Source of the DNA: a virus
Lineage: Duplodnaviria; Heunggongvirae; Uroviricota; Caudoviricetes
Length of the DNA: 64,000 nucleotides
Direction: 5' to 3' (one strand)
IMG/VR virus record: IMGVR_UViG_2724679058_000003
Below the pieces are notes generated by a model. The model worked only from the letters and a program-made list of their open reading frames with translations. It was not told where the DNA came from and made no database searches. A program made the translations under genes and the position numbers. Shown here one piece after another: positions 22,119 through 28,089 of this stretch. Position 1 is the first letter of the stretch, and every line of letters starts with the position of its first letter.

Positions 22119-22741
22119 GCGAAATTAATTACCAGGCATTGCGTGAGGTGGCGGAACGTGCAATTCCAGCAATGGAACGCCTGTTAATGTTGCCAGCTGA
22201 TGATGATTTGTTAAGTGAACAGGAACTTAAAGATTACGGTGTGGATATTGATGCGCTCAACGCCTTCAAATTTCTGACCGGACCAGAAACCGTGCTGGCG
22301 CTGCTGGATGAACGGGAAAGAAACCAGCAATACATAAAACGCCGCGACCAGGAGAACGAGGAAATTGCGCTAACTGTAGGGAAGCTGCGTGTTGAGCTGG
22401 AAGCCGCAGAGAAGCGCAACGCAAAATTACAAAGCGAGAATGCATACATCCGCAACCGGTTCAAAGAGCTGGACCTGTTAATCGGGAAAAACATTCTGGT
22501 CATGCAGGCTGCGATTATCGAATGGCAGGCAACTGGCGACGCTAAAAGCGGACTGGCATGGATTTATAACACACTGTTTGGCCCAGGCGAATTGCCGGAC
22601 GAATCTGAGAAAGATGCTCAGGCCTACTTTAATCGCAAATATGCACCGATTGACGAAAAGCTTATGGAGCTTCACAAGTGGTTTTGGGAACAAAGTGAAG
22701 CCGAGCGCGCCGCTGGCATTCGCATCAAAGGAGGTGAGTAA
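22115..22741 (+). CDS. Ead/Ea22-like protein (paralog)
   Basis: ORF 208 aa; NYQALREVAERAIP. Confidence 0.5.
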   Translation: MSEINYQALREVAERAIPAMERLLMLPADDDLLSEQELKDYGVDIDALNAFKFLTGPETVLALLDERERNQQYIKRRDQENEEIALTVGKLRVELEAAEKRNAKLQSENAYIRNRFKELDLLIGKNILVMQAAIIEWQATGDAKSGLAWIYNTLFGPGELPDESEKDAQAYFNRKYAPIDEKLMELHKWFWEQSEAERAAGIRIKGGE

Positions 22742-23101
22742 TGCGTGTGGCATTTTTCGGCTTGTTACCGTACCCGCCTTGTTTTTGGACTTCTGCGCTA
22801 ATTGCAAAGCCGCATGTCCTGATGGCTGACAACATCATCCCGGCACCAAAGCGCCGCCATACCGGTATTGCGGCTGCACGACGCGAAGCAAAGAAACGCA
22901 GGAGAGCAAAACGATGAAAAACCGTAAAGCAAAGATTCTGTTAGTTCGTAGAAACGCTCCTGGCGTCTGGCAGTGGGTGAGACTCAGCAACCGACGGATG
23001 GGGTTGATGAAATATTACGGGATGATGGATTGTGGTTTTGCAAAAGCCCAGCGCGGCGCAAAACCGCTGGAAAAACCACTTGCGCACTAAAGGAGAGTGA
23101 T

Positions 23102-23320
23102 GTGCCGACATTATTCAGAAAAGAATATCCGCGAAAAAGTAGAGCGACAGAATTTCTGTTTCTCATTCTGTTTATCGTGTTGATGACACCGATATCCCCG
23201 CTAATTTTTGTCTGGGTAATCGGGAAAATAATTGAGCCAGTTATTGAATTGTATAACGACGTGGTATGGGCGTCGTTCAATACACTGCACAATAAAATTA
23301 ATCCATATAAGGAAAACTGA
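23102..23320 (+). CDS. Small membrane protein
   Basis: GTG start after AGGAGAG RBS within ORF 22973..23320; hydrophobic core FLFLILFIVLMTPISPLIFVWVIG. Confidence 0.4.
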   Translation: MPTLFRKEYPRKSRATEFLFLILFIVLMTPISPLIFVWVIGKIIEPVIELYNDVVWASFNTLHNKINPYKEN

Positions 23321-23321
23321 A

Positions 23322-23687
23322 ATGGCACTGACGAAAAAACAACGTGCAGAGCTGCGCATGAAGTTCGGCGGTCGCTGTGCTTATTGTGGCTGTGAACTTG
23401 GCGAAAAGTGGCATGCAGACCATGTAAAACCGGTCATTCGTTTTGCTGGGAATATGCTTCACCAGGAACGTGACGATATATCCAACCTGGTTCCGGCATG
23501 CCACCCATGCAATCTGCACAAGCATTGCAGTAGCCTGGAAGATTATCGGCGAATTATCAGTGATGGTCGTCGTGAATTCCTTGCGTCCGGGAAAGGCAAA
23601 GCGCTGGTTCGTATGGGATTGGTTGAAATGAAATCTGACCCGGTTGTGTTCTGGTTTGAAAAATATCAAGAAGGGGATACGGCATGA
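23322..23687 (+). CDS. HNH endonuclease
   Basis: ORF 23232..23687 trimmed to ATG 23322 after AAGGA; CAYCGC ... HADHVKP ... ACHPCN. Confidence 0.7.
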   Translation: MALTKKQRAELRMKFGGRCAYCGCELGEKWHADHVKPVIRFAGNMLHQERDDISNLVPACHPCNLHKHCSSLEDYRRIISDGRREFLASGKGKALVRMGLVEMKSDPVVFWFEKYQEGDTA

Positions 23688-24070
23688 CCACTATTACCAA
23701 AGAGCGACTGCTGACAATCAAGCAGTGGCGCGAAACATACGGACCTGGTAGCAACGTTGTACTGCCAGCAGAAGAAGCGGAAGAACTGGCACGAATTGCT
23801 CTGGCATCGCTGGAAGCAAAACCAATAGGTGCTTTCCACATTGCAGAACAGCAGGTCGATGGCACAAGTGACTACATCAAGGATGGGGAATGGCCTATTG
23901 ATAATGGAATTATTGAGGTCTACGCCGCTCCACCCGTTCCAGTAGTACCGGAAGAAAAACCAATGCCTAATCCTCTTAGCATGTACGCGGTTGATGCTGT
24001 TGCCGCTATTGCAGAGGTAAGAGGCTGGAACGCCTGCCGTGCCGCTATGCTTGAGGGTAAAGGAGAGTGA
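23684..24070 (+). CDS. Hypothetical protein (shares N-domain with 24280..25164)
   Basis: ORF 128 aa; ELARIALASLEAKP and GWNACRAAMLEG shared with paralog. Confidence 0.45.
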   Translation: MTTITKERLLTIKQWRETYGPGSNVVLPAEEAEELARIALASLEAKPIGAFHIAEQQVDGTSDYIKDGEWPIDNGIIEVYAAPPVPVVPEEKPMPNPLSMYAVDAVAAIAEVRGWNACRAAMLEGKGE

Positions 24071-24071
24071 T

Positions 24072-25952: not shown

Positions 25953-25958
25953 ATTTAT

Positions 25959-26333
25959 ATGATGACACTAAAACATTTTCTTGACCGCCCATTATGGGCG
26001 GCAGCCGCAGGCTATGACTTTAATTATATGGATTGCATGTCTTATACTGCCAATGCATACGACCATTCGTTCACCCTGCTGTTTAATTCTTTAAGAATAT
26101 TGCCGGAAACAGAAGTTGGAGAGCTTCATTTATGGCTATTGGGCTTTATCGCGGCTGTCGTTGGCATTGCTGTATGGCCTTTTATTTTCTGGCTGGTGGC
26201 TGTTGTAGTGTGGTTTAAGTGCAAGACATACCGGAAAAAGTATTTCTTGGGTGACGGAATGACTGATATTGCCAAAATGAACATTGAAAAATGGACTAAG
26301 GAATGTGAAAAGAAATGGCGCAAAAAGAAATGA
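25959..26333 (+). CDS. Membrane protein
   Basis: ORF 124 aa with hydrophobic helix LWLLGFIAAVVGIAVWPFIFWLVAVVVWF. Confidence 0.45.
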   Translation: MMTLKHFLDRPLWAAAAGYDFNYMDCMSYTANAYDHSFTLLFNSLRILPETEVGELHLWLLGFIAAVVGIAVWPFIFWLVAVVVWFKCKTYRKKYFLGDGMTDIAKMNIEKWTKECEKKWRKKK

Positions 26334-26995
26334 CTACTCTAACGACAGCATACTTACAGCAATTGGTATTTTTTGCAGGCGAGGCTACTTGTCATCCTGA
26401 CACAAACTATTTATTGGAATTTGAGAGGTTAGCGTCACCCGGTATCGTTCTGGAACTGGCCCAACAGGTACTGGCCTTGAGACAAAAAGAGCAACATGAA
26501 AGTAATACGTGTAGATTGAATTTTGAGCAGTGGCTGGAACAGCAACGCGGAAAAATCGATGTGGACTGTGGTTGTGTGTCCACTGAAACATTCATGCACT
26601 GGCTGCGGGTAGCTTACGAGGCTGGCAACTATCCGGATATTCCGGATAGTTCGGTGTCAGCGCCAGGAAAGGGCGTCACCGGTGGACGTATCCGCATTAA
26701 GCCGCATGTTTATCGCGAACTGGTTAACCGTCTCCACGATACAGCGATCAAGTGTGCTGGCACCCAGCAATTACGAGAAAGAATTAGCCGTGTTTTGGGC
26801 GACGTTATTACGCCAGATCATCATAAACAAGCCGAGAAAAGTGGCTTGGAAAGGTGTCACCTTGAGGCGGCATTAAACATTAAGCCGGGGCATACGCTTG
26901 GCATTATTGATGCACTATTGGTTCATAAGATGGCCAGGGCTTTATTGCCGCTGGTGGCTGAAAAGCATGAGGCGGACCATGCCAACGAAAGCTGA
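26315..26995 (+). CDS. Hypothetical protein
   Basis: ORF 226 aa. Confidence 0.45.
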   Translation: MAQKEMTTLTTAYLQQLVFFAGEATCHPDTNYLLEFERLASPGIVLELAQQVLALRQKEQHESNTCRLNFEQWLEQQRGKIDVDCGCVSTETFMHWLRVAYEAGNYPDIPDSSVSAPGKGVTGGRIRIKPHVYRELVNRLHDTAIKCAGTQQLRERISRVLGDVITPDHHKQAEKSGLERCHLEAALNIKPGHTLGIIDALLVHKMARALLPLVAEKHEADHANES

Positions 26996-27263
26996 GTTAC
27001 AGGCGCGCATAGAGATTCTTGAAAAAGAGAATGCGAGTCTAAAAGGAATGCTGGCGCGGGCGGAAAGGGAATTATCAGGCAAATTATTGCCAGAAGAGCT
27101 GCCACCAGCAGATATACCTGATCGAGTGTCCTGGTGGATGAAGTATTTCCGTGCACCGTGGGAGGCGTTTTGGTGCTACGACCATCGCAGATGGTGTGAT
27201 GAGCTTGATAGCAGTTTCCCCTATTTTGCGGAAGGGAACTCTTGCCCTGAATGTAGGAGTTAA
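26979..27263 (+). CDS. Coiled-coil/zinc-binding small protein (tandem paralog 1)
   Basis: Start MPTKAELQ inside ORF 26898..27263; C-terminal FWCYDHRRWCDELDSSFPYF...CPECRS. Confidence 0.45.
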   Translation: MPTKAELQARIEILEKENASLKGMLARAERELSGKLLPEELPPADIPDRVSWWMKYFRAPWEAFWCYDHRRWCDELDSSFPYFAEGNSCPECRS

Positions 27264-27568
27264 TGATGACCGGCGAGCTTTATTTTAAAATGGCACGGGA
27301 GCGGCGTGTGCATCTGGATCGGATATTTCATCTCCAGAAGAGAGTAGAAGAACTGGAACGTCGTCTGAACTGTTATCCTGTTGATATGGTGTCTGCAATA
27401 CCGCCGATTCCAATAGAAATGCAGATCCGCCTATGGATGGAAGAATATGGAATGCCGTGGGAGATATTTTTCTGCTTCGACCATAAACAGTGGGTAGATG
27501 AGCTGGATAATAGTTTCCCATATTTCACAGAGAACACATGCCCAGTATGCAGGAAGAACGGAATATGA
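27263..27568 (+). CDS. Coiled-coil/zinc-binding small protein (tandem paralog 2)
   Basis: ORF 101 aa; FFCFDHKQWVDELDNSFPYF...CPVCRK. Confidence 0.45.
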   Translation: MMTGELYFKMARERRVHLDRIFHLQKRVEELERRLNCYPVDMVSAIPPIPIEMQIRLWMEEYGMPWEIFFCFDHKQWVDELDNSFPYFTENTCPVCRKNGI

Positions 27569-28089
27569 CAAAATTTGGAAAGCTGGAAGCTCATTTGCTA
27601 ACTCGTAACTACCGCCATGATATACACCCATATAGACAGTGGATCGATGAAAGCGAAGGAGTAGTTACATTCCCTCTATACAGGTTTGATGGGATGTTGG
27701 CTGGGTATCAGACATATAGACCAGGTGCTCCTAAGCAGCATAGCAATCCGAAGATGGCCCGGTATTTCACGCGATCACACGGCAGACAGTTACTTTGGGG
27801 AACCTATCTTCCTTTAAAAGATGGCCCAATATGGATAACTGAGTCTATTTTTAAGAGCGCAGCTGTACACAATGCGGGCGGCAATTCGTGGGCGCTGTTA
27901 GGTTCGACTTTCTCCGCAGGATTACGCCGTCAACTTGCGATGCTGCCGTATGACTTTCGTGTAATAGGTGACAATGATGCGGCTGGTAAATTACTTGTGA
28001 AGTCTTTCGGAAAAGGTTTTGTGGCCCCGGATCTTGACGAGCTACAACCACATGAAGTGTCTCATTTGATTTTTAGCCATAGCAAATAA
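27565..28089 (+). CDS. Toprim-like domain protein
   Basis: Start MTKFGKLEA inside ORF 27538..28089; ITES...GDNDAAGK acidic motifs. Confidence 0.45.
   Translation: MTKFGKLEAHLLTRNYRHDIHPYRQWIDESEGVVTFPLYRFDGMLAGYQTYRPGAPKQHSNPKMARYFTRSHGRQLLWGTYLPLKDGPIWITESIFKSAAVHNAGGNSWALLGSTFSAGLRRQLAMLPYDFRVIGDNDAAGKLLVKSFGKGFVAPDLDELQPHEVSHLIFSHSK

Follow-up and report, generated by a model that had tools for sequence, protein, structure and literature searches.

The DNA analyzed here is a stretch of 64,000 nucleotides (nt) from a Caudoviricetes virus (IMG/VR record IMGVR_UViG_2724679058_000003); the term window refers to this whole stretch. Judged by its sequence, the window is a P1-like phage-plasmid. 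Our subject is a block of small genes at window positions 22741-28089, which very probably makes up the last two-thirds of a long run of non-essential accessory genes, all in one direction, that fills the known recombination hot spot between pap and lxr. Genes were called from an open reading frame (ORF) listing, by inspection of start codons and Shine-Dalgarno (SD) sequences, and by hydropathy. The block contains 16 genes, all on the + strand, with intergenic distances of -19 to +48 nt and several ATGA overlaps; a first-pass annotation, made from the letters alone, had counted about 15 packed short genes. The genes are as follows (aa, amino acids; E, expectation value; TM, transmembrane segment):

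22741-22917, +: gene for a 58-aa basic peptide; AGGAGG SD sequence; full-length match to PHROG 13831 (E 2e-37)
22914-23090, +: gene for a 58-aa peptide; PHROG 1380/12350 (E 1e-26 to 1e-28); ATGA overlap with the upstream gene
23102-23320, +: 72-aa membrane peptide, DUF4014 (Pfam E 1e-24); GTG start with SD sequence; hydrophobic at aa 13-48
23322-23687, +: 121-aa HNH endonuclease (Pfam HNH; PHROG 2118, E 6e-57)
23684-24070, +: 128-aa protein with an EaA-type N-domain (PHROG 60, E 4e-28), ending with a GWNACRAAML motif
24072-24269, +: 65-aa zinc-ribbon protein (CPKC...CPEC; PHROG 4173, E 4e-28) with a weak YnfU-type zinc-binding match
24280-25164, +: 294-aa EaA-type protein in which the N-domain shared with the 128-aa protein is followed by a linker and, at the C-terminus, DUF551 (PHROG 60, E 9e-56)
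25161-25244, +: putative 27-aa single-pass membrane peptide; AGGAGG SD sequence, ATGA overlap, TM at aa 6-24; the least certain call
25247-25480, +: 77-aa acidic protein of unknown function; full-length match to PHROG 3876 (E 8e-53)
25529-25651, +: 40-aa membrane peptide; full-length match to PHROG 5525 (E 1e-24); TM at aa 3-25
25659-25952, +: 97-aa protein of unknown function; full-length match to PHROG 1258 (E 6e-49) from the ATG at 25659
25959-26333, +: 124-aa membrane protein of unknown function (PHROG 2638, E 4e-63); hydrophobic at aa 52-89
26315-26995, +: 226-aa protein whose C-terminal half is a full-length PmgU counterpart (PHROG 21459, E 5e-83)
26979-27263, +: 94-aa protein with a coiled coil and a C-terminal Cys/His zinc ribbon, first of a tandem pair (PHROG 3797, E 3e-57)
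27263-27568, +: 101-aa paralog of the 94-aa protein (PHROG 3797, E 2e-36)
27565-28089, +: 174-aa stand-alone Toprim protein, a predicted minimal primase RNA-polymerase domain of the DnaG/T7 gp4 type (homolog alignment, profile, AlphaFold2, Foldseek)

PHROG families are matched by all products but one (15 of 16; 14 at E<=1e-24, the first 58-aa gene at 2e-37), and the block is not a chance ORF pattern. The exception is the 27-aa membrane peptide, for which a PHROG search with the longer ORF gave no match. Three Pfam domains scored above their gathering thresholds: DUF4014 in the 72-aa peptide (87.1 against 23.2), HNH (PF01844; 29.5 bits against 21.4) and DUF551 at aa 225-290 of the 294-aa protein (E 6e-21; 75.5 against 22). 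The products of 23684-24070 and 24280-25164 are paralogs (35% identity over 130 aa, BLASTP E 1e-14), as are those of the tandem pair (52% identity over 54 aa, E 4e-22). The 226-aa protein was considered as a third EaA N-domain paralog and rejected, the BLASTP comparison not being significant (E 0.08), though all three proteins match PHROG 60. The gene types named at first pass (the 58-aa pair, membrane, HNH, DUF551 and zinc-ribbon proteins, paralogs and Toprim) were each recovered, by domain, BLASTP or PHROG searches or from the sequence and its hydropathy. Guanine-plus-cytosine content ranges from 0.38 to 0.51 with its minimum at 25500-26499 and forms no sharp island, and a search of the whole window with Rfam at gathering thresholds found nothing besides three tRNAs outside the block.

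On both sides, the block is bordered by the genes that had been expected there, Ea22-like on the left and the SOS-regulated lxr/humD pair on the right:

21429-22118 and 22115-22741: Ead/Ea22 flank genes
28150-28731, -: lxr homolog (96% to P1 86842-88637; PHROG 6164, E 2e-131); the conserved right flank starts at 28164
28869-28884, +: LexA box CTGTATAAATGAACAG, between the divergent lxr and humD, equivalent to the annotated P1 LexA site
28906-29295: humD
20332-28163: segment of 7.8 kb that differs from canonical P1, replacing P1 85184-86841 (1.66 kb)

This last segment was delimited by blastn against P1 (NC_005856). Window 9149-20331 aligns with P1 74000-85183 (98.6% identity), window 28164-29959 with P1 86842-88637 (lxr, humD, phd and doc; 96.3%), and window 30210-36416 with P1 88590-94800. 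The flanks are thus collinear with P1 at 96-99% identity, and the interior is a patchwork, its borders set at 20332 and 28163; those chosen at first pass track gene type and not recombination joints. P1 has ~2.5 kb between the end of pap and lxr, and the window has ~8.7 kb, which bears out the first-pass remark that this stretch is much shorter in P1. Almost all of the genes are missing from canonical P1, so they are not all collinear and conserved there. The sole P1-shared piece inside the segment is 347 bp of pmgU (window 26614-26960, P1 85182-85528, 94.8%), and a tblastn search across the window for P1 pmgV, upfM, upfN, upfO and hot gave no match.

The position of this segment is one of documented variability. 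The relevant section of Venturini et al. 2019 (PMC6906374) describes RD-5 as 'located between pap and lxr' (P1 83,787-86,837) and as one of five hot spots with plasmid-specific content. In the variable-region account of a 2022 study (PMC9603915), region 8 of P1-like phage-plasmids extends from pmgT to humD, and in JL22 pmgT is replaced by a cluster of unknown genes. P7 and SJ46 have their own long versions of the pap-lxr region. The segment studied here lies between pap and lxr with collinear, conserved flanks, and its content is element-specific and shared piecewise with other P1-like elements.

For the P1 genes at this position, P1 annotation gives a 'putative morphogenetic function' (pmgT, pmgU and pmgV), and a morphogenetic role of the block could be read from these historical 'pmg' names. 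This is extremely improbable. In P1, pmgT, pmgU, pmgV, upfN, upfO and hot were non-essential by CRISPR interference (upfM was not in that test), and the region from pmgT to upfO, including upfM, was likewise non-essential in a deletion survey cited in the same study (PMC10695390); pmgT, pmgU and pmgV are thus non-essential for plaque formation. Moreover, Pfam and PHROG searches placed no product of the block in a structural or assembly family, and the gene content varies freely among otherwise near-identical elements.

At the left end of the differing segment, the window carries an intact gene related to P1 pmgT:

19636-20361, +: intact 241-aa homolog of the PmgT N-terminus (99.6% identical to PmgT aa 1-232, then nine more codons)

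Related RefSeq records name this homolog 'ASCH domain-containing protein'; a Pfam search with it gave no match. The P1 joint reads AATCCCTGGGTT followed by ACGAGGCTGGCAAC (also written CCCTGGGTT followed by ACGAGGCTGG) and fuses two genes that are intact in the window. Its left part continues in the window from CCCTGGGTT into TGGGTAATCGAG, and the 241-aa ORF stops nine codons on. Its right part lies within the 226-aa ORF of the window, where CGGGTAGCTT precedes the joint and ACGAGG follows it. The joint corresponds to window positions 20331 and 26614 (NC_005856 85183/85182), with a 2-nt overlap (microhomology). In the last 77 residues of P1 PmgT, the pmgU-type gene is translated in a shifted frame, and the same spurious frame is present in the window as ORF 26682-26876. 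PmgU aa 1-101 correspond to aa 114-214 of the 226-aa protein (93% identity). Upstream, the P1 PmgU frame is open only to three codons before the joint, with no native start, and in this open form it is homologous to the 226-aa protein from aa 101 onwards. Among PLSDB records, DNA is contiguous across the P1 joint in 5, across the left joint of the window in 44, and across position 26614 in 251.

Because of these joint frames and record counts, the pmgT/pmgU arrangement of P1 is best read as a rare deletion fusion and not as an ancestral state awaiting cargo. A rare deletion in P1 would have brought the ASCH-type gene, which lies upstream, into an out-of-frame fusion with the middle of the pmgU-type gene. 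We weighed this against the reverse history, in which foreign cargo entered a P1-type backbone, the P1 arrangement being ancestral and ~6 kb having been gained here. Such a gain would fit a region 6.2 kb longer than its counterpart in the reference phage, with a left half near-identical to lambdoid prophage DNA. It is nevertheless improbable: the two genes joined in P1 are both intact here, the PmgT tail is read from a pmgU-type gene in a shifted frame, PmgU is without a native start, and 5 plasmid records carry the P1 joint as against 251 with an intact right-hand gene. In addition, no target-site duplications or mobile-element ends were seen at 20331 and 26614. The term 'mosaic cargo' used at first pass therefore holds in its first word, no record covering more than 81% of the block, and fails in its second, the P1 junction being an out-of-frame deletion fusion. 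Reference P1 thus looks like an atypical, deleted form at the pap-lxr locus. The last 77 aa of its pmgT and the start of its pmgU are unfit as annotation templates because they are deletion by-products.

The block as a whole was not found in one record among the phage, plasmid and 5426 complete Escherichia coli genome records searched. The best phage record covers 44% of it and the best plasmid, NZ_CP063155, covers 81% (window 23668-29960, 96.9%). The best of the complete E. coli genomes covers 73% of 20332-28163. Parts of the block are matched by 677 plasmid records, just one of which reaches 81%, and pieces occur in 3396 of the 5426 E. coli genomes, at 7744 chromosomal and 738 plasmid places.

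The two halves of the block differ in their phage relatives. When the whole block was searched, 466 phage records matched, mostly of Stx-converting and other lambdoid phages, covering query positions 1-2417 only (window 22741-25157). About 450 such records share this part at ~95-98% DNA identity. In contrast, a search with 25158-28140 returned 18 phage records only, all P1-like (SJ46, RCS47, P1 variants, D6, P7, JL22, PhiR41_1, CMS-2020a and 813R1). The left part thus belongs to lambdoid early-region modules and the right part does not. Because the phage matches of the halves differ in this way, the earlier description 'lambdoid-type' fits the left 2.4 kb but not the right 2.9 kb. Lambdoid genomes carry the shared modules in early accessory regions: the DUF4014 and HNH pair is also found in Stx phage ArgO145, in the early-left accessory region on the int side, and shared modules in TL-2011b lie downstream of the replication genes. 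The left part comprises modules near-identical to lambdoid/Stx early accessory genes of the exo-xis or nin side, and the right part P1-like-only modules, among them the full-length pmgU form, the tandem zinc-ribbon pair and the minimal primase-type Toprim gene.

The joints between matching and non-matching DNA lie near gene ends (23668, 25157/25160 and 27257). Two coding motifs, both at domain borders of the EaA-type proteins, are repeated at the DNA level: GWNACRAAML at 24023-24055 and 24613-24645, and NYPxIP at 24714-24731 and 26626-26643, the second copy lying 12 nt from the P1 deletion joint. In P7 Upf89.5, the N-part of an EaA-type gene is joined to a PmgU-type C-part. These short repeats are likely recombination joints for domain shuffling. 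A search of the block borders for mobile-element ends and long repeats gave nothing beyond short coding-motif repeats. Exchange joints coincide with gene boundaries and short conserved linker motifs.

We then considered how the gene string may be expressed. Two features frame it:

19441-19457, +: C1 repressor operator OpmgT (Op88) ATTGCTCTAATAAATCT, one mismatch to the C1 consensus, corresponding to P1 84293-84309
28102-28128: within this interval, a GC-rich, terminator-like hairpin with an 11-pair stem, GGCCACAATTAGTGGCC, between the convergent Toprim gene and lxr

OpmgT overlaps the conserved PpmgT promoters, which are annotated in P1, in a 98.6%-identical collinear stretch. No further C1 operator was found after 19441-19457 until 35793, and hence none inside the block. 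A search of the + strand of the block for the P1 late-promoter box with a proper -10 element gave no match, and sigma-70-like promoter matches were not in excess (13, against 14.4 expected from shuffled sequence). OpmgT presumably controls all genes of the + strand string that follows it, and this string probably ends at the hairpin. According to this model, the string 19636-28089 (~8.5 kb) would be transcribed from C1-repressed PpmgT once repression lifts and would end at the hairpin, the block being the distal two-thirds of this early C1-repressed transcription unit. Since their transcription would start at a C1-repressed promoter, the genes are expected to act early in lytic growth.

We also observed a small hydrophobic ORF (MNTAFKIIMAAIYFWLFSITFGGIVAHG; 19541-19627, +) downstream of the C1 operator and ahead of the first large gene. 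A palindromic hairpin at 19490-19512 precedes it, and SJ46 annotates an equivalent 'membrane protein'.

The first-pass annotation had also hinted at defence or anti-defence modules, naming the HNH and Toprim domains. We ran PADLOC and NCBIfam, whose libraries contain no anti-defence families, on the block products. The HNH gene gave weak, domain-level matches of the PtuB and PDC-M01B types (<=32 bits), and the product of 23684-24070 gave one weak PglZ match (E 0.0015, 15 bits). PADLOC returned no match for the Toprim protein and 13 other products. Neither Septu (PtuA and PtuB) nor any other full PADLOC system is present in the block, and the PtuA ATPase partner is missing. NCBIfam gave nothing specific. 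A known defence system in the block was therefore rejected, the matches being generic HNH-domain ones and the weak PglZ one, and the hint found no direct support.

An anti-defence or defence island in a wider sense, in which the HNH, Toprim and small proteins counter host immunity or exclude phages, is unlikely but retains some weight. Early, dispensable small genes with fast turnover in a hot spot would be a typical anti-defence setting, the HNH protein has its weak PtuB-type matches, and rare long relatives of the Toprim protein (see below) carry Mom, GNAT and Arr, cytidylyltransferase-like, HAD and CCA-adding domains. These long relatives resemble the 'polyvalent' conflict proteins that Iyer and colleagues are said to have described in 2017. 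The absence of a PADLOC system and of PtuA, HNH matches of 32 bits at best, the 14 products without a PADLOC match and the unspecific NCBIfam result speak against such an island.

Just outside the block, aa 96-199 of the second Ead/Ea22-like protein (22115-22741, +) match the PADLOC model 'DpdH' (PDLC02890) at E 4e-37. The match may reflect an Ea22-type domain within the PADLOC model and not the presence of a Dpd system.

The Toprim gene next to lxr was analyzed further. Homologs of its 174-aa product are 160-190 aa long and 35-98% identical. In an alignment of 15 of them, E93, D136xD138 and P62 are invariant, and D156, E159, K57 and N61 are near-invariant. Because a direct search of PDB sequences gave no match, profile and fold searches were needed. 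The profile matches the DnaG cores of Staphylococcus aureus, E. coli, Pseudomonas aeruginosa and Aquifex (E 4e-4 to 8e-3; for the core structures 4e2k and 1dd9, E about 4e-4 to 1e-3), and the match extends from motif II to the DxD motif. An AlphaFold2 model was obtained with a mean predicted local distance difference test score of 91.5 and a predicted template-modelling score of 0.87. Its best Foldseek matches in the PDB, over 167-178 columns, are the DnaG core (3b39 and 1dde), T4 gp61 and a T7 gp4 primase fragment (1nui); small Toprim domains of the RNase M5 type rank far behind. The protein also matches PHROG 849 'DNA primase', at positions 143-333 of 435 only.

Of the parts of a DnaG-type primase, the 174-aa protein thus has the Toprim fold, the catalytic Glu and DxD, and the N-terminal subdomain of the RNA-polymerase domain. 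Its sequence contains no cysteine, so the N-terminal zinc-binding domain is missing, and a helicase-binding or helicase domain is missing too, the model ending ~20 residues past the second acidic cluster. Compared with DnaG, T7 gp4 and T4 gp61, the Toprim Glu, the DxD, the second acidic cluster and a K..N.P counterpart of the DnaG 'KYLNSP' are conserved. In contrast, where DnaG motif II has its conserved Arg, the profile alignment shows an invariant Gln, and overall sequence similarity to DnaG is marginal (E about 1e-3). From sequence and model, the family is best described as a minimal catalytic domain of the DnaG/T7 primase type. Its residues make an activity in phosphoryl or nucleotidyl transfer probable. 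Lacking two defining domains, the protein is not a replicative primase in the full sense.

The family is widespread. At E<=1e-3, an exhaustive profile search found 1711 representatives, of which 173 reach E<=1e-30 (50%-identity clusters). Among the best 150 listed, most are stand-alone proteins of 165-190 aa. Rare long relatives (P0132, P0060, P0146, P0123, P0079 and P0122), which may be true fusions or merged gene calls, carry a CCA-adding enzyme/poly(A) polymerase head (twice), Mom, GNAT with Arr, a cytidylyltransferase-like domain or HAD. In plasmids, the gene is present at full length in 48 records and partially in a further 94; P7 and SJ46 retain only its 3' end. The P1 hot region is present at full length in 132 plasmid records. 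Thus, the Toprim gene and hot are alternative cassettes beside lxr. Because of the rare fusions (CCA-adding, Mom, GNAT with Arr, HAD) and the interchange with hot beside lxr/humD, the protein could conceivably belong to a large, uncharacterised phage family of stand-alone 'mini-primases' with intact catalytic residues, non-replicative early effectors that target nucleic acids in phage-host conflict or in RNA/DNA repair; we hold this as a speculative, minority reading.

Zinc-binding domains of T7 gp4 can act in trans. The tandem zinc-ribbon proteins and the Toprim protein might thus form a split primase with the zinc domain in trans, priming P1 lytic replication. The genes are adjacent and translationally coupled, and the Toprim protein offers the primase catalytic fold and acidic residues without a zinc-binding domain. 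However, three unrelated contigs with distant Toprim homologs (L006, L008 and L009) have no zinc-ribbon genes upstream of these homologs, and neither has PhiR41_1, where a 94%-identical Toprim gene follows an EaA gene. Moreover, most family members are stand-alone proteins, and there is no helicase-binding domain. A split primase is therefore very improbable for this block, and as a general rule it was rejected, since zinc-ribbon genes do not co-occur with the Toprim homologs in these neighbourhoods.

Taken together, we return to the reading of the block as part of an accessory-gene string in the pap-lxr hot spot. Its products would act as dispensable modulators of host interaction, replication or the lysis-lysogeny choice, and homologous recombination, both with lambdoid prophages in the same host and with other P1-like plasmids, would keep renewing its gene set. 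Four points weigh against parts of this picture. The functions of the 16 products are putative roles only, exchange may have run from lambdoid phages to P1-like elements or in reverse, and the ancestor of the P1 deletion need not have had the genes seen here and may have had others between the two joints. Transcription from PpmgT through 8.5 kb is deduced from the DNA, and weak internal promoters may contribute.

Although this exact combination occurs in none of the collections searched, the locus, the kind of feature and every module are already on record. The block is ordinary because the hot spot is published and its modules occur in hundreds of E. coli phages and plasmids. As a discovery it matters little, being a further instance of a documented recombination hot spot, and it is a clear example of near-identical modules common to lambdoid prophages and P1-like plasmids. 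A by-product is the widespread, apparently uncharacterised family of small primase-like Toprim proteins.

Several features elsewhere in the window were noted. About 250 bp between doc and pdcA (29960-30209) are absent from P1 and NZ_CP063155 and are bordered by an imperfect 22-nt direct repeat (29939 and 30234); a 91-aa ORF at 29989-30264 (+) gave no Pfam match. The pdcB-like (DUF968) ORF at 30476-31237 (+) encodes 253 aa, compared with 347 aa annotated in P1, and may be truncated or recombinant. Two overlapping ORFs on the - strand (41657-44845 and 44725-48423; 1062 and 1232 aa) contain N6-methylase, SNF2/ResIII and helicase-C domains. We take them to resemble darB, presumably split by a frameshift or sequencing error. 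Nearby, a PIN-domain gene (39926-40876, -) lies where P1 has res/mod. The three tRNA genes (4016-4088, 4094-4166 and 5806-5878, all +), the only Rfam matches in the window, are ordinary for P1-like phages.

Three known systems resemble what was found here. The first is P1 hot, a theta-subunit homolog, which like the Toprim gene is the last gene in the + strand string and convergent with lxr. Its function is accessory, replication-associated and non-essential, and in this it can be likened to the Toprim gene. The two have no sequence relationship (no tblastn match), and hot has its own late promoter LPhot, an equivalent of which was not found in the block by the late-promoter search.

The second comprises the exo-xis and nin-type accessory genes of lambdoid and Stx phages (Ea22, EaA/DUF551, DUF4014 and small HNH genes). 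As described in PMC7093339 and PMC3824215, such genes are early, dispensable and mostly of unknown function. Gene order within the modules is the same as in 22741-25157. The modules differ in that they lie here in a P1 backbone with C1, rather than CI/N, as the presumed control, and lambdoid phages have no DNA-level counterpart of the right half of the block.

The closest likeness is to RD-5 and region 8. The hot-spot passages of PMC6906374 and PMC9603915 say nothing of a deletion behind P1 pmgT/pmgU or of what kind of protein the Toprim gene encodes. The block differs from the described versions in its exact combination, which is absent from the phage, plasmid and complete E. coli genome collections. 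It has the same backbone position, the same conserved flanks and the same piecewise sharing, its best relatives being NZ_CP063155 (81%), SJ46, RCS47 and P7.

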